The translations under genes and the position numbers were made by a program. Under the pieces are notes generated by a model, which ran no database searches, was not told the origin of the DNA, and was given only the letters and a program-made list of their open reading frames with translations. 10,535 nt of DNA from Oculatellaceae cyanobacterium bins.114 (GTDB lineage: Bacteria; Cyanobacteriota; Cyanobacteriia; Elainellales; Elainellaceae), in contig JANRJA010000207.1 of assembly GCA_033764315.1 (NCBI GenBank), positions 1 through 10,535 on the forward strand, in the 5' to 3' direction. Below are positions 1-10,535 of this stretch, one piece after another (within the stretch, counting starts at the first letter, position 1; each line of letters opens with the position of its first letter).

Positions 1-1434
1 AGTGCGGTAGTCCAGCTCAATGGTGTGGGTTTTGCCCTTGCCCAACCAACCCCCCGTTCATCCAATCAACCCTCAAGTCGAACAACGGCAACCACTCAAC
101 CTAATCGTTCCCTTGACCCTGACCCCAATCCATTACAACTGCCGACCAAAGTTAATGAGGTACAGCTTCAAAGCACCCAATCGATTACATTACAGGAGGC
201 GATCGCTCTAGCAGAGCGTAATAATCGAGATCTCCAAGTGGCAGAACTGACCCTGAAGCGCGGGCAGGCAGCATTACGACAGGCACGAGCCGCATTGTAC
301 CCAACTCTGGCAGGTGAAACCGAGATTGGATACGAACGGTCAGCAAACGATCGACTGGATGATTTGAAATACCTGAATGAAGATGCATCTCCAACGGGTG
401 TTTTGGGTGGCAGAGTAGAAGTAAGTTATGACATTTTCACATCAGGCAGACGACCCGCTCAAATTCGCGCAGCAGAGGCTCAGGCTCGCTATGAACAATT
501 AGAAGTAGAACGACTACGGGCACAAATTCGACTAGATGTGACCAATGCTTACTATGACGTGCAACAGGGTGATGAGCAGGTACGCATTGCTCAGGGAGCC
601 ATAAAAAATGCTGAGAGGAATTTATCTGACGCACAAGCCTTAGAAGAGGGAGGAATTGGCACAAAATATGATGTGAGTCGTGCTAGGGTTCAACTTGCAA
701 ATTCGCAGCAGGACCTTACAGATGCTCAAGTGCAGCAAGCAACTACTCGTCGTCAGTTGGTGCAGTTACTCAGCTTGTCTGAAATGGCAGACGTGAGTGC
801 TGCAGATCCGGTGCAGAAGGCTAACGAATGGACACTGTCTTTAGAGGACAGCATTTTACTGGCATACAAAAACCGGGTTGAATTTCAGCAGCAGTTAGAG
901 CAGCGCACGATCGCTCAACAGCAACGCAAAGCCGCGATCGCAGGTCGTTTGCCCCAAATCAGCTTGTTTGGTAACTATCAATTCTTGAATGAGTTTAATG
1001 AACCCTTTGGAACCCTTGATGGATATGCAGCAGGAGTACGCTTGAGATGGACGTTTTTTGATGGAGGCGCAACCTTTGCGGCGGCAGATCAGAACCGTAC
1101 GAATCAGGCGATCGCAGAAACCCGTTTTGCCCAAACCCGCAACCAAGTTCGATTTCAAGTAGAGCAAGCATTCAAAAATCTGCAAGCCAACGACCGCAGC
1201 ATTGAAACGGCAACCACTGCATTGAAGGAAGCTCAGAACGTGGCAGAGGTGGCAGAATTTCGGTTTCAGCAGGGCGTGAGCACCCAGTTGGATGTTATCA
1301 CTGCTCGCAATGACTTAATCCGTGCCGAGAGCAATCGACTGAGAGCCGTTTTGAACTACAACCGTGCCTTAGCAGCCCTGCAACGAGCTGTTAGCGGACT
1401 CCCCTCGAACAAACCTGCCAGTTCTTCTAAATGA
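1..1434 (+). CDS. TolC-family outer membrane efflux protein (5' end outside window)
   Basis: The frame is open from base 1 (SAVVQLNGVGFALA-Q looks like the end of a signal peptide), so the GTG at 25 is probably not the true start. OEP-repeat features: ITLQEAIALAERNN, AALYPTL, YDIFTSG, VTNAYYDV, RLPQISL, WTFFDGG, RFQQGVSTQLDVITA, YNRALAALQRAV. Confidence 0.93.
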   Translation, partial: SAVVQLNGVGFALAQPTPRSSNQPSSRTTATTQPNRSLDPDPNPLQLPTKVNEVQLQSTQSITLQEAIALAERNNRDLQVAELTLKRGQAALRQARAALYPTLAGETEIGYERSANDRLDDLKYLNEDASPTGVLGGRVEVSYDIFTSGRRPAQIRAAEAQARYEQLEVERLRAQIRLDVTNAYYDVQQGDEQVRIAQGAIKNAERNLSDAQALEEGGIGTKYDVSRARVQLANSQQDLTDAQVQQATTRRQLVQLLSLSEMADVSAADPVQKANEWTLSLEDSILLAYKNRVEFQQQLEQRTIAQQQRKAAIAGRLPQISLFGNYQFLNEFNEPFGTLDGYAAGVRLRWTFFDGGATFAAADQNRTNQAIAETRFAQTRNQVRFQVEQAFKNLQANDRSIETATTALKEAQNVAEVAEFRFQQGVSTQLDVITARNDLIRAESNRLRAVLNYNRALAALQRAVSGLPSNKPASSSK

Positions 1435-1479
1435 GAAACGGTTTAACGAATTTATCCTTTGATTTCAAAGGTAACAGTT

Positions 1480-1692
1480 ATGTCTTTGCTTTTCCTCATT
1501 CCGCTGGTTATTGGCTTATTAGCCGCCCGTTCATCAAAAAAATGCACCGATGATCTTGCTGAACTCACAGGTTTCGTTGCAGCATTGAGTCTAATTCTAA
1601 GTCTAGTCCTAGCTCCCTGGCAGATTCTATTTCTGCTGTTAACGCTAATCATTAGTGCAAAAACTTCTCAACGCCAACGACCTGTTGCATGA
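1480..1692 (+). CDS. small hydrophobic cyanobacterial membrane protein (70 aa), unknown function
   Basis: ATG at 1480 preceded by AAAGGT. Two to three hydrophobic segments; LFLIPL...D(D/E)...SLILSLVLAPWQI resembles a conserved small cyanobacterial family (recalled, not searched). Confidence 0.75.
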   Translation: MSLLFLIPLVIGLLAARSSKKCTDDLAELTGFVAALSLILSLVLAPWQILFLLLTLIISAKTSQRQRPVA

Positions 1693-1712
1693 CGAAGCAT
1701 CTCAGGCTTATC

Positions 1713-1745
1713 TTTCATCTCACTTTCATCGGAAGCAGCGAAACT
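1713..1745 (+). promoter_or_regulatory. OmpR-type direct-repeat box 1 plus -10 element
   Basis: TTTCAT-ctcac-TTTCAT (1713-1729), 10 nt, GAAACT (1740-1745); upstream of the M23 gene. Confidence 0.8.
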
Positions 1746-1789
1746 GATATAAGTGCCTTTTCGAGAATAACCAACGAAAGATTTTAGTG

Positions 1790-3001
1790 ATGTCCGAACG
1801 AATTCACCCCGTTGACCCATCGCCAAATGGTAAACGCTATTTATCTCGACTCAAGCAAGGACTCATCTGTATTAGCAGTTTTTCTCTTCTAAATAGCGGG
1901 ATTGCGATCGCTCAAGCTCAATCAGATCAAGAAATTACTCCCATCGATCCAGCTTCCCAACCTGCTGTAGAAGTTGCACCAGCTATTTCTGCACCCAGTC
2001 CAGCCTTTGTTAAGACTACGCCAACGCCATCTGAAACACCCCCATCGGCTTCCTCTGACCCAATCACCACTGCACCCGTAGAGGCTACTGAGTCATATAT
2101 CGATTCAACGCCCTACAGTCTTGGAGCTACTGATCGAGAAAAGCCTGTCGTCATTGCTCGTCCTACTCGAAGTCCCATCATTGCTCCAAGTTCAGTAAGC
2201 ACCCGCTATTCAATGAGCGTAGATGCTGGCAGCGTGAATTTTTCAAGCGCAAATCCTGCTGGAATTTACCCTGGAAGCACTACCGCTTCTGGCACAAATT
2301 ACTATCACAAACTGCCCTACCAAACCAAACCATTCAACACCATCAGCCTAATTTTTCCCCTTTCTATTCCGGCTCCCATTACTTCGATTTTTGGTTGGAG
2401 AGTTCATCCTATTAGTGGCGTGTTTCGCTTCCACTCTGGTACTGATATCGGCGCACCGTTAGGAACCCCCGTATTAGCTGCCTATGCCGGGAAGGTGGAG
2501 ATTGCAGACTTTCTCAGCGGCTACGGTTTGTCTGTTTCCATCAAACATCAGAATGGAACCAAAGATACGCTCTACGCCCATCTGTCCGAAATTTTTGTCA
2601 ACCCAGGACAATGGGTGAAACAAGGAGATGTGATTGGGCGTGTTGGCAGCACCGGAACTGCAACTGGACCAAACCTCCACTTTGAACTACGACAGTCAAC
2701 TCCCGAAGGTTGGGCTGTAATAGACTCTGGCGCACAGTTAGAATATGCCCTGGCTGGTTTAGTGAAAGCATTGCAAACAGACAAATCTTCAGCCCAAGCT
2801 CGAAGCATAAAACAGAAACAAGTGAGCAGTCGTGTTGGTAGTGTAGAACTGGTAACCAAACCAACTCTTCCTTTTGAACTGCGCCAGTCAACGCTTGAAG
2901 CTTGGGCAGCATTGGATCCTGGTGTTCAGTTGGAATATATCTTGGCTCAACTGGTAAAACCGTTACAAACAGCGAAATCGCCTGCTCAACCTCGTAGCTG
3001 A
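1790..3001 (+). CDS. M23/LytM-family metallopeptidase-like protein with N-terminal signal/TM segment and Pro/Ser/Thr-rich linker
   Basis: ITSIFGWRVHPI, HSGTD (HxxxD), GYGL, TLYAHLS, VKQGDVIGRVGSTG and GPNLHFE (canonical GPHLHFE). Start is GTG 1787 or ATG 1790. Confidence 0.93.
   Translation: MSERIHPVDPSPNGKRYLSRLKQGLICISSFSLLNSGIAIAQAQSDQEITPIDPASQPAVEVAPAISAPSPAFVKTTPTPSETPPSASSDPITTAPVEATESYIDSTPYSLGATDREKPVVIARPTRSPIIAPSSVSTRYSMSVDAGSVNFSSANPAGIYPGSTTASGTNYYHKLPYQTKPFNTISLIFPLSIPAPITSIFGWRVHPISGVFRFHSGTDIGAPLGTPVLAAYAGKVEIADFLSGYGLSVSIKHQNGTKDTLYAHLSEIFVNPGQWVKQGDVIGRVGSTGTATGPNLHFELRQSTPEGWAVIDSGAQLEYALAGLVKALQTDKSSAQARSIKQKQVSSRVGSVELVTKPTLPFELRQSTLEAWAALDPGVQLEYILAQLVKPLQTAKSPAQPRS
2615..2998 (+). 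repeat. 192-nt (64-codon) in-frame tandem duplication at the 3' end of the M23 gene
   Basis: Unit 1 2615-2806 (VKQGDVIGRVGS...AQARS) and unit 2 2807-2998 (IKQKQVSSRVGS...AQPRS); 40/64 residues identical by hand alignment without gaps. Confidence 0.92.
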
Positions 3002-3046
3002 AAATGCATTTAGAACTAATAATCAACAGCAATCAATAGAGCAAAA

Positions 3047-3079
3047 TTTCACCCGGCTTTCATCCCAACCTGTCACACT
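3047..3079 (+). promoter_or_regulatory. OmpR-type direct-repeat box 2 plus extended -10
   Basis: TTTCAC-ccggc-TTTCAT (3047-3063), 10 nt ending TGT, CACACT (3074-3079); upstream of the pxcA-like gene. Confidence 0.8.
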
Positions 3080-3165
3080 TTTTACAAAGGCTTCTTATCA
3101 AAACAGTGCTTCTTCTCACTTCCTCGCCTGCTGTTCAAGAAGCCTAACTTTTGCTTCTGAAGCCA

Positions 3166-3981
3166 ATGAAACTCAGATCGGCTTTTCAAAAAACAGGTCT
3201 TCTTCCTCGCTCTATCAACCAGACGCTGGAGAAATTTAGAAGAAGTTTAGATCCGAAGGGTGAGTCTGAGATTCTTGAAGAATTTCAAGCGTCTCGAACT
3301 CGAACAATTATTTCTTTACGCTACTTGTTAATCCTGCTGATTGTTCCATTACTAATCAACCAAATCTCCAAAAACTTCGTGATTGAGCCGTTAGTGAAAA
3401 ATGTTTGGCTGAATCGACAGTTGGAAGTTTTTGTAAACTCAACTCAAGAAGAGCGCCTACTAGCAGAGTTGCGTGATTTTCAAGCTCAAATTCGATTTGA
3501 ATCTCTCGTTAAAGAAAGTCCGGCATTCTCTGAACAGAAGATGCAAGAAAAGATTCACGATAAAGCGATCACTTTATCCGAGAAGTATACAGATGAAAGC
3601 ATTAGTGCGATTAGCAACATTTTTGCAGATACACTCGCTGCGATCGCTTTCATTATGCTAATTATTAAAGGCAAAGAGCAACTTTCTGCCCTAAAACAGT
3701 TTGTTGATGAACTGATATACGGTCTAAGCGATTCTGCCAAAGCTTTTTTTCTCATTCTGCTCACCGATATGTTTGTTGGTTTTCACTCCTCTTATGGCTG
3801 GGAAATCCTGTTGAAAGCTACTTCACATCACTTTGGGTTGCCTGAGAGCAAGCAATCTATCTCCCTTTTTATTGCAACTGCTCCAGTCATACTAGATGCA
3901 ATTGGTAAATACTGGATTTTTCGTTATCTTAACCGCATCTCTCCCTCATCTGTTGCAACCTATCGCAACATGAATGAATAA
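3166..3981 (+). CDS. CemA/PxcA-family (proton extrusion protein-like) membrane protein, short form (~271 aa)
   Basis: LPRSI, YGLSDSAKAF..IL.TD.FVGFHS..GWE, HFGLP, FIAT.PVILD and KYWIFRYLNRISPS.VATYRNMNE are hallmark CemA/PxcA C-terminal motifs. ATG 3166 is preferred over TTG 3151. Confidence 0.92.
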   Translation: MKLRSAFQKTGLLPRSINQTLEKFRRSLDPKGESEILEEFQASRTRTIISLRYLLILLIVPLLINQISKNFVIEPLVKNVWLNRQLEVFVNSTQEERLLAELRDFQAQIRFESLVKESPAFSEQKMQEKIHDKAITLSEKYTDESISAISNIFADTLAAIAFIMLIIKGKEQLSALKQFVDELIYGLSDSAKAFFLILLTDMFVGFHSSYGWEILLKATSHHFGLPESKQSISLFIATAPVILDAIGKYWIFRYLNRISPSSVATYRNMNE

Positions 3982-4005
3982 ATTATTTACAGTTAAAGAT
4001 TGAAG

Positions 4006-4038
4006 TTTCATCCTAGTTTCATTCCCTTTTGAGATTCT
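4006..4038 (+). promoter_or_regulatory. OmpR-type direct-repeat box 3 plus extended -10
   Basis: TTTCAT-cctag-TTTCAT (4006-4022), 10 nt ending TGA, GATTCT (4033-4038). Confidence 0.8.
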
Positions 4039-4096
4039 GTAAATACTAGCCTTTTAGTTGGCTATAAACCTGAGAGTTTCATTTCGGAGAAATGCA

Positions 4097-4462
4097 ATGA
4101 AAAAGTTAGTTTATATAACTACTGCAACACTTGTCCTGGTGTCTTCAATTTCTGCTGTTTTGGCGATCGTATCCACAAGTTCTGCCGCTTACGCAGGTGA
4201 AACATCTGACTCTGCATACTGCCAGAAAGCCTTCAAACCAGCAACTTCAGGAGGAGCCGTGCGAGAACGGTTGACGGCGATGGCAAAGTGCAACTCAACA
4301 AATACCATCTCAAACACATCAGCCGTACAGCCGCTGAAGAGTTCGTTGACTACCAATTCCACTAATGCATCTAATGTCTGTGTCATTCCTCCAGCCGGAA
4401 CTACAGGAGGGTCTATTAGGCAAAACTTTGAAGCTTCAACAAGATGCAACTCAGGGCGTTAA
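4097..4462 (+). CDS. secreted hypothetical protein (121 aa) with two Cys-bounded internal repeats
   Basis: GGAG at 4086-4089 before ATG 4097; Sec-type signal MKKLVY...AAYA; two C...GG-x2-R-x4-A-x3-CNS units. Confidence 0.8.
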   Translation: MKKLVYITTATLVLVSSISAVLAIVSTSSAAYAGETSDSAYCQKAFKPATSGGAVRERLTAMAKCNSTNTISNTSAVQPLKSSLTTNSTNASNVCVIPPAGTTGGSIRQNFEASTRCNSGR

Positions 4463-4519
4463 CCATAACAGACTGAATTGCAAAGTAGAACTTCTGTAAT
4501 TGATCGAAGGAGAACATTG

Positions 4520-4987
4520 ATGAAACAGTTCACTGCTATTGCTGCATCTGTGCTGACTTTTACCTCTTTCAGTCCTGCTGCCAATGCCACTTCTGAAGCA
4601 AATGTGCCTCATATCGTAGGAGGGGTAGGAAATCCAAACAACACGTCTTTCCAGCCTGCCAACTATTCAATCAAGCTACATGTCACTGGCAGATCCCTCT
4701 TGCAAGTATCAATTGAGCCACCTACTGGAGGTCGATTAAGCGATGCGATCAAAATTACCGACCAATCTGGCAAAAAATTAGATGCCACTATTTCGCTGAA
4801 TGGGCAGAGAGTTTTAATTGTCTTTGCTCAACCCATTGCACCAGGAAGTACCTTGACTATTGGTATGCAGCAGGTGAGAACACTAGACAACGAAATGGTT
4901 TGGCATTTTCCAGTCGCTGCCAAACTAGAGGGTATCTCTGAGGACATTCCAATGGGTGCAGTGAGAGTGCAACCTCATATCCGCTGA
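4520..4987 (+). CDS. secreted DUF2808-like protein
   Basis: AGGAG at 4508-4512 before ATG 4520; signal peptide ending ANA; beta-rich body with I.F.QP(I/V)APG.TL.I and IPMG.VR motifs typical of cyanobacterial DUF2808 proteins. Confidence 0.75.
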   Translation: MKQFTAIAASVLTFTSFSPAANATSEANVPHIVGGVGNPNNTSFQPANYSIKLHVTGRSLLQVSIEPPTGGRLSDAIKITDQSGKKLDATISLNGQRVLIVFAQPIAPGSTLTIGMQQVRTLDNEMVWHFPVAAKLEGISEDIPMGAVRVQPHIR

Positions 4988-5028
4988 CACCCGGTTTACA
5001 CCTAGACTTTCAGAACCGGATATTTAAC

Positions 5029-5065
5029 AGTCGAGTCGTGGTTGTATTTCTGCGGCTCGGCTTTT
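5029..5065 (+). terminator. probable intrinsic terminator after the 4097-4987 unit
   Basis: AGTCGAGTCGTGG (5029-5041) pairs with CTGCGGCTCGGCT (5050-5062): 13 bp including 4 G:U pairs, which work only on + strand RNA. 8-nt loop, followed by a short T run. Confidence 0.6.
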
Positions 5066-5113
5066 GACTGCGAAGTTGCAATATATACAAAGATATACAG
5101 GTGAGCAGAAAAC

Positions 5114-5146
5114 TTTCACCGTACTTTCATTCTGCCTTGCCAGACT
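5114..5146 (+). promoter_or_regulatory. OmpR-type direct-repeat box 4 plus extended -10
   Basis: TTTCAC-cgtac-TTTCAT (5114-5130), 10 nt ending TGC, CAGACT (5141-5146). Confidence 0.8.
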
Positions 5147-5195
5147 AGAAGTAAACCAATCCCCAGAGGGGGGATTTTTAGTTTAGGAGAGTCAG

Positions 5196-5444
5196 ATGAA
5201 ATACCTTGCTTTTGCCACTTTTGTTTTGATGCTCGTTGCTTCAGCCTTTACAGCAAATGCGGCAGAAACAAAATGTAAAGGCGATGCACTGCGAAAAAAG
5301 CCTCCGATACCGAATCATCCTACCCACATCCGTAATGTAGTGTGGCGTAATACGCGGGCGATGTGTCTTCAGGAACTTTCGCAGATGCCAAAGCCTCCGG
5401 CAGCAAGTAACATACCCTCTACCCAGCCGTCTTCATCAAACTAA
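5196..5444 (+). CDS. small secreted hypothetical protein (82 aa) with C-x29-C loop and HPTH motif
   Basis: AGGAG Shine-Dalgarno just upstream, signal peptide MKYLAF...ANA, and its own promoter box upstream. Confidence 0.8.
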   Translation: MKYLAFATFVLMLVASAFTANAAETKCKGDALRKKPPIPNHPTHIRNVVWRNTRAMCLQELSQMPKPPAASNIPSTQPSSSN

Positions 5445-5552
5445 ACAACGGCGCGACGCTCATTCAGGGACATCTATACAATCTCAGTGAACGAACCAAT
5501 AATTGATCGCTCCCGGATTGCCCTTCTGAAGCCAGGAGGATTTTTGCAGAAA

Positions 5553-5585
5553 TTTCATCCTGTTTTCATTGTCACCTGTCAAGCT
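5553..5585 (+). promoter_or_regulatory. OmpR-type direct-repeat box 5 plus extended -10 (autoregulatory site)
   Basis: TTTCAT-cctgt-TTTCAT (5553-5569), 10 nt ending TGT, CAAGCT (5580-5585); upstream of the response regulator. Confidence 0.85.
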
Positions 5586-5633
5586 AAGAATGAGAGTTCT
5601 AATCCTGGGTAGGGGGATATTCAGTCGTCAGAG

Positions 5634-6344
5634 ATGAAAGTTCTGTTAGTTGAAGATGAAATCGATTTGGGAGCAGCACTCCAGCGCACTTTGCAGCAGG
5701 AGAAATACATTGTGGACTGGGTGCAAGATGGAGCGGATGCCTGGGACTATTTAGACAGTCGGCAAACTCAGTACACGCTGGCGATTTTTGACTGGATGTT
5801 ACCCAGTTTGACAGGTCCAGAACTCTGTAAACGATTACGAGAACGGCAGAATTCTCTGCCTGTGTTGATGTTGACAGCACGAGACCGTTGGGAAGATAAG
5901 GTGGTGGGCTTGGATGCGGGAGCCGATGACTACCTGGTCAAGCCGTTTCGGATGGAAGAGTTGCTAGCACGGCTACGGGCATTATGGCGGCGATCACCTC
6001 AATTTCAACCCACACAAATTCAGGTCGGCAGCTTCACCCTCGACTGCCATAACCGCACTATTTGCTGGCAATCTCCTCAAAAAAATGGCCGAACCGTTCG
6101 ACTCAGCAAGAAAGAGTTCCAGCTCATGGAATACTTCATGAAACATCCTCGCCACGCTGCCACCCGTGACCAGATCCTGAGCTACCTTTATGAGGTAGAC
6201 ACTGAGCGGATCAGTAATGTTGTTGCAGCGCAGGTGCGGTTGTTACGACGCAGACTCACGGAATTAGGCTGTGAGGATGCGATTCAAACAGTTCCGGGAG
6301 GAGGATATCGGCTTAATCCCGCCTATGCAGACGCGGTTGTTTAG
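5634..6344 (+). CDS. rppA: OmpR-family response regulator, RppA/NrsR/CopR type
   Basis: MKVLLVEDE, FDWMLP (phosphoacceptor), LMLTARD, GADDYLVKPF; winged helix with SNVVAAQVRLLRRRL, characteristic of cyanobacterial RppA-type regulators. Confidence 0.92.
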   Translation: MKVLLVEDEIDLGAALQRTLQQEKYIVDWVQDGADAWDYLDSRQTQYTLAIFDWMLPSLTGPELCKRLRERQNSLPVLMLTARDRWEDKVVGLDAGADDYLVKPFRMEELLARLRALWRRSPQFQPTQIQVGSFTLDCHNRTICWQSPQKNGRTVRLSKKEFQLMEYFMKHPRHAATRDQILSYLYEVDTERISNVVAAQVRLLRRRLTELGCEDAIQTVPGGGYRLNPAYADAVV

Positions 6345-7710
6345 ACGAACTCGCTTGCAACTGGCGGGATGGTATGCGGTTGTCATGGGGTTGATCCTGA
6401 GTCTGGGTGGGTTGACGATTTATCAGGTCATTATTCGGGCTTATTCAGTTTCGATCGACCGGGAGCTAGAGGCAGTGACTGAAACCTTACATAACGGGAT
6501 CGAACTGAATTTGAAGCAACCCGGTCAATTAGAGCCCATTATTCAAAAGCTAGTTCCCGATGTTTGCGTAGTCGGAAAACCTTGTCTCAACAAAACGTTC
6601 TCCACCCATAACCACAACTCGTCTAATCAACATCACTCGATCAATACAATCCGTCAGAGTGACTACTACATTCAGTTTCTAGACAATTCGGGAAGCATCG
6701 TCGCTACGGCTGGGCTGCGTCCAGATGTACCTCTAACAAATGGTTCCGATACCTGGCAAACCGTTGTGGATTCGGAGGGAAATCGCTTTCATCAGAAGTC
6801 GTTGCCATTGCACACCCTCGACAATCAACTGTGGGGGTATCTCCAGGTTGGACGATCGCTGAAAGATTTGGACAGTCGTCTTGCTTCGTTGAAGTTAGCC
6901 TTCTTCATCGGGTTGCCCGTGATCACAACTTTAGTCGCTGTTTCCAGTTGGTTTTTGGCAGGAATTGCCATGCGCCCTATCTACCGCTCCTACCAGCAGA
7001 TGCAACGGTTTACAACCGATGCCGCACACGAATTACGCACACCGTTAGCCGCGATTCTGGCAACGGTTGATTCAGTTTCAAGGTTGCCCAGTTTAACAGA
7101 GCTAGAAACACGGGATACGCTGAAAACGATTGAACGCCAGCTCAACCGTTTTTTTGAGCTTGTTAAAGATTTATTTTTGCTAGCCCGATTGGAGCAACAC
7201 ACGCTGGCAATTCAGAGGGAATCAGTTTGCTTAAATGACTTAATCCATGATTTAGTTGAAGAGTTTGCAGCCTTTGCCGACGCGAATGGATTAACCCTAG
7301 CAGCAGAGATTCAAGTTGCTAAGGAATTGCATATTCTGGCAGACGAAGACCAGGTTTATCGCTTGATTTCAAACCTGGTTGTGAATTCAATTCAGTATAC
7401 GTCTACAGGTGGTGCTGTGACGCTGGTTCTCAATCGGGACGAAGGTCATGCTGTGATTCAAGTTCGAGATACCGGCATGGGAATTGCCCCTGAAGAGCAA
7501 GTACACATTTTTGATCGGTTTTATCGAGTGAACCGCGATCGCTCCCGTCAAACGGGTGGATCGGGATTGGGTTTGGCAATTGCTAAAGCGATCACTGAAG
7601 CTCATGAGGGAAATTTACAGGTACAGAGCGAAGTTGATCGAGGCAGCACCTTTACAGTGCGTTTACCCTTGAAATCACGTCCGATTAATAATCATGCAAC
7701 CGTTATCTAA
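6325..7710 (+). CDS. rppB: sensor histidine kinase, RppB/NrsS/CopS type
   Basis: ATG 6325 (overlapping the rppA end by 20 nt) gives the typical LF..TR..LAGWY..VMG.IL start. Two TM helices, H-box FTTDAAHELRTPL, N-box NLVVNSIQY, DTGMGI, FDRFYRV, GGSGLGLAI. Confidence 0.92.
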   Translation: MQTRLFRRTRLQLAGWYAVVMGLILSLGGLTIYQVIIRAYSVSIDRELEAVTETLHNGIELNLKQPGQLEPIIQKLVPDVCVVGKPCLNKTFSTHNHNSSNQHHSINTIRQSDYYIQFLDNSGSIVATAGLRPDVPLTNGSDTWQTVVDSEGNRFHQKSLPLHTLDNQLWGYLQVGRSLKDLDSRLASLKLAFFIGLPVITTLVAVSSWFLAGIAMRPIYRSYQQMQRFTTDAAHELRTPLAAILATVDSVSRLPSLTELETRDTLKTIERQLNRFFELVKDLFLLARLEQHTLAIQRESVCLNDLIHDLVEEFAAFADANGLTLAAEIQVAKELHILADEDQVYRLISNLVVNSIQYTSTGGAVTLVLNRDEGHAVIQVRDTGMGIAPEEQVHIFDRFYRVNRDRSRQTGGSGLGLAIAKAITEAHEGNLQVQSEVDRGSTFTVRLPLKSRPINNHATVI

Positions 7711-8764: not shown

Positions 8765-9091
8765 ATGCGATCGCTCCTTTTCTTTTGTATGGCGGCATTC
8801 GGTGAAATTTCTGGCTGTTATGCCTTCTGGGCATGGCTCCGACTGGGCAAAAGCATGCTCTGGGTGCTGCCGGGATTAGTCGCTCTCACCCTCTTTGCAG
8901 TTGCCCTCGCCCAAATTGAAACTTCCAATGCCGGAAGAGCTTTTGCTGCCTATGGCGGGATTTATATTCTCTTGTCACTTGGGTGGTTGTGGACGGTTGA
9001 AGGAGTCAAGCCAGATCGCTGGGATTTATTAGGTGTAGCGGTTTGCCTGATTGGTACAGTGATTATTATGCTAGCTCCCCACAGGCTCTAA
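8765..9091 (+). CDS. ynfA: YnfA/UPF0060 family small membrane protein (108 aa)
   Basis: [44 protein letters not shown] 8765 gives the family-typical length. Confidence 0.93.
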
Positions 9092-9469
9092 ATGGGCTGC
9101 CACTTCTTGGTACAGATTCATCACATGGTTATCGGCTAAACTATAATACACATTCCGTCCCTCCTTGCGGTACTTCACCAACCGCATAGCTCGGAGAATC
9201 CGAAGCTGGTGCGACACAGCTGATTCACCGATCTTTAAACCTGCTGCTAAGTCGCACACGCACAACTCCTGACGTGCCAAAGCTGAGAGTATCCGCAGTC
9301 GGGTTGGGTCTGCCAGGACACCAAAAAATTCTGCCATCCGTTGCGCTTCAGGTATTGGCAGGATTTCTGGTTGCACCTGACGGACTGTTTCTAGGTGGAT
9401 GAGACGGGTTTCACAACCCGGTGCATCCGGCTCTTGGATGAGTGGGATTGAATCTTTGCGGTTAGGCAT
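9071..9469 (-). CDS. ziaR: ArsR/SmtB-family metal-sensing repressor, ZiaR-like (132 aa)
   Basis: C.....H in the N-arm, [58 protein letters not shown]; divergent from a Zn-type P1B ATPase. Likely ATG at 9469. Confidence 0.92.
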
Positions 9470-9548
9470 AGAAAGAACTTGGTGTGACAACTGTAAATAA
9501 GATGGCTTCGCTTAAGCCCCAGTATAGAGCTAAGAATGGTTATCGTTC

Positions 9549-9574
9549 TATATATGAATATACTTTCAGATATT
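9549..9574. promoter_or_regulatory. SmtB/ZiaR-type 12-2-12 imperfect inverted-repeat operator
   Basis: TATATATGAATA-TA-CTTTCAGATATT, 8/12 positions complementary, TGAA-N6-TTCA core; lies between divergent ziaR and ziaA. Confidence 0.85.
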
Positions 9575-9630
9575 GAAGGTTTTGCTCTACAATTTTTGAA
9601 TAACGCTTTAACCTGATTTGGCTACCCGCT

Positions 9631-10535
9631 ATGACTCAAACTCCCTCGCTTAAAACTCAACAGATGCAAGTGGGTGGTATGGACTGCTCTAGTTGCGCGA
9701 TGAAGATTGAAGGCAGCGTGGAGAAATTGCCAGGGATTGCTGAGGTGTCGGTCAACGTGGCAACGGGACGTATGGTGGTGTCCTACGATCCGCAGGAAGT
9801 CAGCGAGGTGGAAATTCAAAATCGGGTGACGCGATTGGGCTACACGGTTGCGATCAAGCAGTCGCGGACACCCACTTCATCTCATACTGACGACGGTCAC
9901 GATCAAGATGACGGACACGATCACAATCACAGTCATGGCACTGGTGAATTTAATCTGAAAAAAGAGCTGCCTGCGGTGGTACTCGCGGTCTCGTTATTTG
10001 CAATCGGCATCATTTTTGAAGAACCGTTGCACAACACGCCTTATAACATTGGTGAGTTTGCCGTATTTATCCCAGCTTACCTGCTCAGTGGTTGGTCAGT
10101 GTTAAAAACGGCTGGACGCAATATTCTGAGAGGGCAGATTTTTGATGAAAACTTTCTGATGACGATCGCCACATTGGGAGCCTTTGCCATTCACCAACTC
10201 CCAGAAGCGGTTGCCGTGATGCTGTTTTTCAAGGTGGGTGAGTTGTTTCAAGAGTATTCTGTCGGGCGATCGCGGCGATCAATTAAGGCGTTGTTGGAAG
10301 TGCGTCCTGATAGTGCCACCTTGAAAGTGAATGGAACGGTGAAACAAGTTAAGCCTGAAACGGTCAATGTGGGCGATCAGATTCTGGTGAAGCCAGGAGA
10401 GAAAGTGCCTTTAGACGGCGAAATTCTGGAGGGCAACTCTCAAGTCGATACCTCTGCCTTAACAGGTGAATCGGTTCCTCGCATCGTCAACGTTGGAGAT
10501 CCAATTTTGGCAGGCATGATTAACAAGTCGGGCGC
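9631..10535 (+). CDS. ziaA: Zn/Cd-exporting P1B-type ATPase, ZiaA-like (3' end outside window; absent from ORF track)
   Basis: Hand translation from ATG 9631: MTQTPSLKTQQMQVGGMDCSSCAMKIE (HMA GMDCxxC), His/Asp-rich linker, FDENFLMTIATLGA, EAVAVMLFFKVGELFQ, VKPGEKVPLDG, DTSALTGES; open to the window end. Confidence 0.95.
   Translation, partial: MTQTPSLKTQQMQVGGMDCSSCAMKIEGSVEKLPGIAEVSVNVATGRMVVSYDPQEVSEVEIQNRVTRLGYTVAIKQSRTPTSSHTDDGHDQDDGHDHNHSHGTGEFNLKKELPAVVLAVSLFAIGIIFEEPLHNTPYNIGEFAVFIPAYLLSGWSVLKTAGRNILRGQIFDENFLMTIATLGAFAIHQLPEAVAVMLFFKVGELFQEYSVGRSRRSIKALLEVRPDSATLKVNGTVKQVKPETVNVGDQILVKPGEKVPLDGEILEGNSQVDTSALTGESVPRIVNVGDPILAGMINKSG

Follow-up and report, generated by a model that had tools for sequence, protein, structure and literature searches.

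The 10,535-nt window analysed here, the entire contig C130 of the 6.64-Mb and 90.7% complete assembly of the Oculatellaceae cyanobacterium bins.114, encodes a TolC-family efflux protein, an M23 metallopeptidase, a PcxA/CemA-like membrane protein, a DUF2808 protein and two small, likely exported proteins, followed by an OmpR-family response regulator of the RppA/CopR type, its sensor kinase and a separate metal-sensing unit (Table 1). Five intergenic gaps of this region carry, always on the plus strand, the direct repeat TTTCAY-N5-TTTCAT, in the following called the box, with a hexamer of the form NAnnCT 10 nt downstream (5/5) and, in all cases other than the site at 1713, the TG dinucleotide of an extended -10 element at -15/-14. 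A sequence-only reading of this DNA had described this architecture, and its coordinates, its strand, the gap of exactly 10 nt and the TG in 4/5 sites were all found to be exact. The five promoter-like sites are real.

The pattern search of the window with one mismatch gives no further sites, while 200 shuffles contain on average 0.32 and at most 3, with 0/200 reaching five. The composite pattern of box and hexamer recovers the same five sites only, even with two mismatches allowed (shuffles: mean 0.12, maximum 1). Using the other 12 spacer lengths between 0 and 12 nt as controls, which average 4.0 matches per genome and thus 0.006 in the window, the Poisson probability of at least five boxes in 10.5 kb is approximately 1e-13. 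As the five sites share only 22-38% pairwise identity at the 63 unconstrained positions outside the motif, they are not recent duplicates, in line with the earlier view of motif conservation. That the boxes arose by chance or are relics of a duplicated intergenic element is hardly credible; spacer statistics, the low identity at free positions, the same layout in about 150 loci and the start geometry of CopR promoters refute it. A generic sigma-70 scan of the window recovered 0/5 of the promoters (15 matches versus 11.6 by chance), as expected in the lack of a -35 element.

The link to CopR of Synechocystis, made in the sequence-only reading, holds. The putative CopR site has been given as TTCATN4-5TTCAT (PMC4182526), and CopR (slr6040; PMC4284471), the regulator homologue on pSYSX, binds and activates the copM and copB promoters (PMC4284471; PMC13421787). 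Exactly two boxes are present in 16.7 kb of pSYSX, upstream of copM and copB, followed after the same 10 nt by TGc-CAGACT and TGa-AACACT, respectively. Differential RNA sequencing (dRNA-seq) places the transcript starts of the two pSYSX cop operons at 34756 and 37463 (PMC4195498, supplement), in 2/2 cases 39 nt after the box start, such that the hexamer occupies -12 to -7 and the TG -15/-14. In the chromosomal copM unit the untranslated region (UTR) is equally 28 nt long; the value in PMC4890671 is 26 nt, 2 nt off. By analogy, the box+39 offset of the CopR promoters predicts starts at precisely the five positions that had been proposed for the window (Table 1), all of which are purines, with predicted 5' UTRs of 38, 80, 52, 43 and 42 nt in site order.

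The layout is shared by relatives of the regulator, which were collected in two sets, 80 loci around related regulators (set 1, 1.4 Mb) and 100 loci consisting of 20 genome regions and 80 metagenome loci (set 2); organisms are partly shared, the loci in both sets are kin and the counts are not independent events. Set 1 contains 167 boxes with the 5-nt spacer versus 26 with spacer 0 and 0-4 at each of the other 11 lengths, with at least one box in 68/80 loci; set 2 contains 169 versus 0-7 at other lengths. Dereplication left 89 sites, of which 77 have the TG and 79 NAnnnT (0-10 upon shifting by 1-4 nt), while the canonical TAnnnT is found in 8 only, the base at -12 being C in 41, A in 25, T in 8 and G in 5. 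The missing first T of the -10 element noticed in the sequence-only reading is therefore seen, but as a family-wide trait that includes the CopR promoters and not as a peculiarity of the window.

A non-T at -12 might alternatively reflect a dedicated island sigma factor, as the plasmid islands L032, L033 and L034/L130 encode sigma-70 proteins with an altered region 2.4, preceded by a box in L032 and L033. However, a sigma gene is found in 0/80 related loci (within the stored flanks), which nevertheless show the same -12 spectrum, none of the five group 1/2 sigma matches of the genome is on an island contig at the given assembly completeness, and no sigma factor is annotated in the pSYSX cop region. 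Such a factor is not needed and was rejected as a very remote explanation.

In all five promoters the direct repeat of 11-bp period lies at -39 to -23 of the predicted start, where a -35 element would be expected, and the extended -10 after it lacks the T at -12. PhoB and PmrA bind as a tandem dimer to a repeat in place of -35 (bioRxiv 10.1101/2022.07.20.500760). With a probability of about 0.85, the five sites would be activator-dependent promoters of the response regulator encoded at 5634-6344, or of its 94% identical twin on contig C235, responding to a likely metal signal to the sensor kinase. Upon sensing of the metal by the kinase, the regulator would be phosphorylated at Asp53 and bind as a head-to-tail dimer with one subunit per TTTCAY half-site, as suggested by OmpR/PhoB structures and the CopR literature, and would recruit RNA polymerase, thereby compensating for the weak core promoter, with transcription expected to start 39 nt after the box start as in the homologous CopR promoters. 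Promoters 1-4 would direct expression of the M23 peptidase, the PcxA-like protein, the DUF2808 protein and the two small exported proteins, promoter 5 would establish positive autoregulation, and in paralogous and related cassettes such promoters would serve TolC, RND pumps and CDF transporters.

The regulator might instead act as a repressor on the boxes of otherwise active promoters, as TG-extended -10 promoters can function without a -35 element. ManR has been called a repressor at mntCAB (PMC13421787), and a similar box precedes mntC (PMC4182526). On the other hand, the fixed distance between box and hexamer (79/89 at shift 0, 0-10 otherwise), the single orientation and the mostly missing T at -12 fit a contact-dependent activator, as in CopR-activated promoters, which makes repression improbable.

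With a composite profile built from the sites of other genomes, eight island and cassette sites come out on top in the 6.6-Mb genome, at 25.6-38.3 bits compared with 23.2 bits for the next-best match and a null maximum of 20.3. An earlier version of the profile had the same top seven, with the site on contig C19 at null level. The genome-wide scan that the sequence-only reading had suggested, also with regard to the TolC operon, thus has its eight best sites all in the island and its paralogous cassettes, one of them before a paralogous TolC gene. Of 13 exact boxes in the genome, five are in the window, two on C235 and one, at C19:1598, precedes a paralogous TolC gene, while five are scattered at background rate, with NAnnnT in 0/5 of the scattered versus 8/8 of the island sites. 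The C235 cassette repeats an orf82 homologue, the 94% identical regulator, a 76% identical kinase, YnfA, ArsR and the ATPase, with boxes before the same two genes. Consequently, the regulon, which had been taken as local, is confined to the island lineage as judged from sequence, but extends beyond the contig through three more sites and a twin regulator. At C235:1-3594, transposase-like remnants lie upstream and the sensor loop of the kinase has diverged from that of the window kinase; two sensors may feed one shared regulon.

Regulator and kinase, encoded by adjacent, overlapping genes, both pass their NCBIfam cut-offs. The regulator possesses the phosphoacceptor Asp53, the recognition helix SNVVAAQVRLLRR, over which it is identical to CopR, and the wing TVPGGGYR; the helix pattern SNVVAAQ[VIM]RLLRR, which it shares, is present in 106/132 regulator sequences. 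A quick tree built from 65 of the 132 rows places it in a 9-row subclade (SH-like approximate likelihood ratio test, 99) apart from CopR, and grouping it exclusively with CopR is rejected (approximately unbiased test, p-AU 1.4e-7; 30 rows), by which the regulator is classified, on phylogenetic grounds, as a paralogue and not as the CopR orthologue. The sensor has two transmembrane helices, His235 and, ahead of a His-rich insert, an extracytoplasmic Cys pair, with Tyr in place of the His-Trp pair that follows the first transmembrane helix in CopS. These features and the neighbouring Zn/Cd-type ATPase suggest that the kinase probably responds to a transition metal external to the cytoplasmic membrane, which need not be copper.

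The promoters might be real but mainly read by another RppA-family paralogue of the genome (on C6, C249 or C81), alone or by cross-talk. Six regulators pass the NF041734 cut-off, the helices of C6 and C249 are nearly identical (SNVVAAQMRLLRR and SNVVPAQMRLLRR) and no exact box is seen on the contigs of these paralogues, where contig ends truncate the regulator genes. Against this, all eight strong sites lie within cassettes of the window-regulator lineage, both copies of the regulator gene itself have one immediately upstream, and the wing tips of C6 and C249 are hydrophobic; such regulators adjoin sites with A or G at position 11 of the box (73/73), in contrast to C or T in 4/5 window sites. 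A paralogue as the main reader is therefore considered unlikely, ahead of repression and the sigma factor in rank.

Several observations weigh against control of all five sites by the adjacent regulator. The site of promoter 1 lacks the TG, and in the related loci L035 and L173 the M23 gene follows TolC without a box. The genome encodes the six RppA-type regulators mentioned, with similar helices on C6, C249 and C81, and a profile trained on the own clade scores higher for only 5/8 sites, the other profile for 3/8 (training sets of 19 and 105). The sensor ligand may, from its sequence, differ from that of CopS. A similar box does not guarantee control, as shown by the sites before mntC and nrsRS/nrsBACD, which are reported as unresponsive in the CopR experiments described in PMC4182526. 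Finally, autoregulation is not universal among relatives: many lack an exact box just upstream of the regulator, and of 30 short loci only a minority show one no more than 200 nt from where the regulator gene starts. With respect to the suggestion of the sequence-only reading that such promoters may be nearly silent without the activator, the wild-type Synechocystis cop promoters gave 75-2243 reads over 10 conditions, none of them listed as a copper treatment (PMC4195498), while PcopB is called fairly tight and a PcopM variant leaks (PMC4890671).

The bases flanking the half-sites differ between regulator clades. In dereplicated sites, A precedes the second half-site in 4/28 sites of the window-regulator clade versus 70/84 elsewhere, and the first half-site in 12/28 versus 79/84; in set 2, the second half-site is preceded by A in 2/18 sites of the clade versus 71/73 of hydrophobic-wing regulators, and in the window in 0/5. 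In parallel, the wing tip reads PGG[GS]YR in the window-regulator clade and [HYP][GS][MVLT]GYR elsewhere. Base composition was rejected as the cause, as the clade includes loci of 42% GC and hydrophobic-wing genomes of the same family have A at nearly all sites. The upstream-subunit wing of Mycobacterium tuberculosis PhoP touches the spacer in the DNA complex (PMC4832192), which makes a causal link between wing and base plausible. It is conceivable, though doubtful, that the wing insulates CopR-like paralogues, which have the recognition helix and the core box in common, from each other, with a hydrophobic tip (M/V/L/T) selecting a purine before the half-sites (ATTTCAT) and the Gly tip PGG[GS]YR a pyrimidine (YTTTCAT). 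The flank rule concerns one clade only, a few sites break it, and where the wing tip carries Gln (three loci), T, T and A are found in front of the second half-site, with the -10 apparently shifted by one base. If true, this would constitute a one-residue/one-base specificity code, explaining why the boxes of CopR, NrsR and ManR are alike yet without cross-regulation, a question raised in PMC4182526 on which the flank base bears, and would provide orthogonal sets of metal-inducible promoters for cyanobacterial engineering.

Promoter 1 is the weakest of the five, with 25.6 bits in the composite profile versus the null maximum of 20.3; a second extended -10-like string, TG-A-TATAAG at 1745-1753, overlaps its predicted start. 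About 20 nt just downstream of promoter 2 are missing from one DNA contig (contigs aligned piecewise on 1-6400); among RNA data no record with this sequence is listed, which argues neither way. The hexamer of promoter 4 is that of the Synechocystis copM promoter, and the promoter is kept in C235 and L035 despite diverged upstream DNA. A GC hairpin with a T run at 5158-5176 lies 5 nt downstream of the start predicted for promoter 4, shortly before the orf82 ribosome-binding site, and is likewise kept in C235 and L035 with differing loops; it could serve 5'-end stabilisation or attenuation. Promoter 5 is likely autoregulatory, and its half-sites and the TGTCA..CT block are conserved in six aligned homologous promoters.

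Table 1. Promoters, genes and hairpins of the 10,535-nt window
Feature	Position	Strand	Remarks
TolC-family outer-membrane efflux protein	1..1434	+	Pfam OEP 222.9 bits; 5' end and promoter beyond contig edge
70-aa membrane open reading frame (ORF)	1480..1692	+	3 hydrophobic stretches; no Pfam/NCBIfam match
Promoter 1	box 1713-1729, hexamer GAAACT 1740-1745	+	predicted start 1752; upstream of M23 peptidase gene
M23 metallopeptidase	1790..3001	+	Pfam PF01551 110 bits; HxxxD and HxH motifs
Promoter 2	box 3047-3063, TG 3071-3072, CACACT 3074-3079	+	predicted start 3086; upstream of PcxA/CemA-like gene
Short PcxA/CemA-like membrane protein	3166..3981	+	Pfam CemA 314 bits; PcxA models below cut-off
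Promoter 3	box 4006-4022, TG, GATTCT 4033-4038	+	predicted start 4045; upstream of orf121 and DUF2808 gene
orf121, 121 aa	4097..4462	+	N-terminal hydrophobic stretch, 4 Cys; no family; likely exported (predicted)
DUF2808 protein	4520..4987	+	Pfam PF10989 35.4 bits
12-bp hairpin and 4 T, likely terminator after DUF2808	5030..5061	+	RNAfold, without shuffle control; not listed by terminator scan
Promoter 4	box 5114-5130, TG, CAGACT 5141-5146	+	predicted start 5153; upstream of orf82
orf82, 82 aa	5196..5444	+	N-terminal hydrophobic stretch, 2 Cys; likely exported (predicted)
Hairpin after orf82	5522-5539
Promoter 5	box 5553-5569, TG, CAAGCT 5580-5585	+	predicted start 5592; upstream of rppA-rppB
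OmpR-family response regulator, RppA/CopR type	5634..6344	+	NCBIfam NF041734 368.9 bits (cut-off 250)
RppB/CopS-type sensor kinase	6325..7710	+	NCBIfam NF041735 624.2 bits (cut-off 400)
TPR protein, then YnfA	downstream of kinase gene	+
ArsR/SmtB gene divergent from His-rich Zn/Cd-type P1B ATPase	9071-10535

The PcxA/CemA-like gene is a second genomic copy, the other homologue being encoded on C17 (51% identity), and a short second gene of this type recurs in the related islands L032, L033, L130 and L173. orf82 represents a small conserved family without Pfam entry, with 29 homologues and a C235 paralogue of 68% identity; in atlas searches with orf82 and orf121, all matches scored below 0.9. 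In 56 family genomes, long DNA matches to the 4.3-kb target block are absent outside conserved domains. The ArsR/SmtB-P1B ATPase pair has no box and is a metal-sensing unit of its own next to the two-component regulon. Elsewhere in the genome, no box lies within 350 nt of the CopM-like gene on C243, with up to two mismatches allowed. A one-mismatch, A-flanked box at C89:218 (17.9 bits, null level) precedes a likely exported protein of 306 aa rich in His and Met, behind which, as read from the sequence, comes a phytochelatin-synthase-like ORF; the box may belong to another regulator paralogue.

In related islands the boxes travel with the genes. The pcxA-like homologue of L173 is located at a different place and has its box there as well (L173:1135), and homologous TolC genes are preceded by a box in L035, L171 and L173 as well as on C19. 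Neighbours in related islands include RND/CzcA, CDF and CopM-like genes, and annotated plasmid islands carry 6-8 boxes each, before RND/CzcA, CDF, DUF2808 (as in L033 and L034), M23, DUF305, sigma-factor and regulator genes. The sigma-70 genes are L032:1109-2083, L033:3090-4043 and L130:2543-3514, with an unusual region 2.4 (QSITRYLAL; QAMTRAISQ); in L032 and L033, where the sigma gene is directly behind a box, the regulator may drive a sigma cascade. A second, diverged regulator with the helix SNVVAAQIRRLRC and the wing QGGN, without an adjacent kinase, is found at L035:13539-14315 and also in L171-L173; its gene in L035 is on the opposite strand with its own box upstream, and it is possibly accessory or degenerate. 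In L034/L130 (Nostoc PCC 7120 pCC7120beta, 79-133 kb), a metal-gene region with two regulator pairs, which share them, contains about 15 boxes with this architecture, the first regulator of L034 being the one we take to be all7606. Starts predicted from these boxes include 98319, 90688, 90095, 89204, 87824 and 79200, on the minus strand.

The box, its placement and the autoregulatory arrangement were already known from the CopR system. Literature searches on the family, its start sites and its wings listed no description of the family-wide -12 trait, the regulon of this clade or the flank variant, while Giner-Lamia 2012, which probably depicts the promoter sequences, may already show a non-T at -12. 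What is gained is a predicted regulon at base resolution for an unstudied CopR paralogue, which ties DUF2808, two small exported proteins, a second PcxA-like protein and an M23 peptidase to a likely metal/envelope stress response. The family-wide rule of box, 10 nt, TGn-[C/A]AnnnT and start at +39 renders such regulons readable from cyanobacterial genomes and plasmids.

The common denominator with class II activation in the OmpR/PhoB family, such as PhoB at pstS, PmrA at pbgP and M. tuberculosis PhoP, is the tandem repeat of 11-bp period that replaces -35, the PhoB site spanning -41 to -25 (bioRxiv 10.1101/2022.07.20.500760) compared with -39 to -23 in the window; half-site sequence and host differ, as does the base at -12, which in promoters of the window type is usually not T. 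Synechocystis NrsRS/RppAB (sll0797/sll0798) and ManRS resemble the window system, according to their descriptions, as OmpR-family metal-responsive regulators with similar TTCAT repeats before nrsRS/nrsBACD and mntC (PMC4182526). The NCBIfam RppA model covers both the window regulator and CopR, and the reported RppA motif AAMAWCTCYYWCCCC (PMC13421787) occurs at chance level in the window (5 versus 4.2). In the case of Nostoc PCC 7120 pCC7120beta, all7606/all7605, called only a putative copS/copR homologue in PMC12282138, belong to the same wider tree subgroup (support 91) and share many exact boxes of the same layout as well as the neighbours DUF2808, CemA-like, TPR, RND and ArsR with P1B ATPase; they differ in the wing, PSMG, and in boxes mostly with A before each half-site.

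The closest known counterpart is the CopRS (Hik31/Rre34) regulon with copMRS and copBAC, which has in common with the window the hexamer repeat, the 5-nt spacer, the 10-nt gap, TGn-(C/A)AnnCT, the identical recognition helix, the autoregulatory layout, the extracytoplasmic Cys pair of the sensor and the box geometry of -39 to -23, with starts measured in Synechocystis. The window regulator, though, is a paralogue with 57% identity to CopR and its kinase has 46% identity to CopS, the sensor carrying a His-rich insert and lacking the His-Trp pair. The wing of the window regulator reads PGGG where CopR has YGLG, and the second half-sites are mostly preceded by a pyrimidine instead of A/G. Pfam and NCBIfam searches gave neither copM (DUF305) nor copBAC in the window; its targets are the M23 peptidase, the PcxA-like protein, DUF2808 and small exported proteins, served by five sites, or eight in the genome, compared with two promoter types in Synechocystis.

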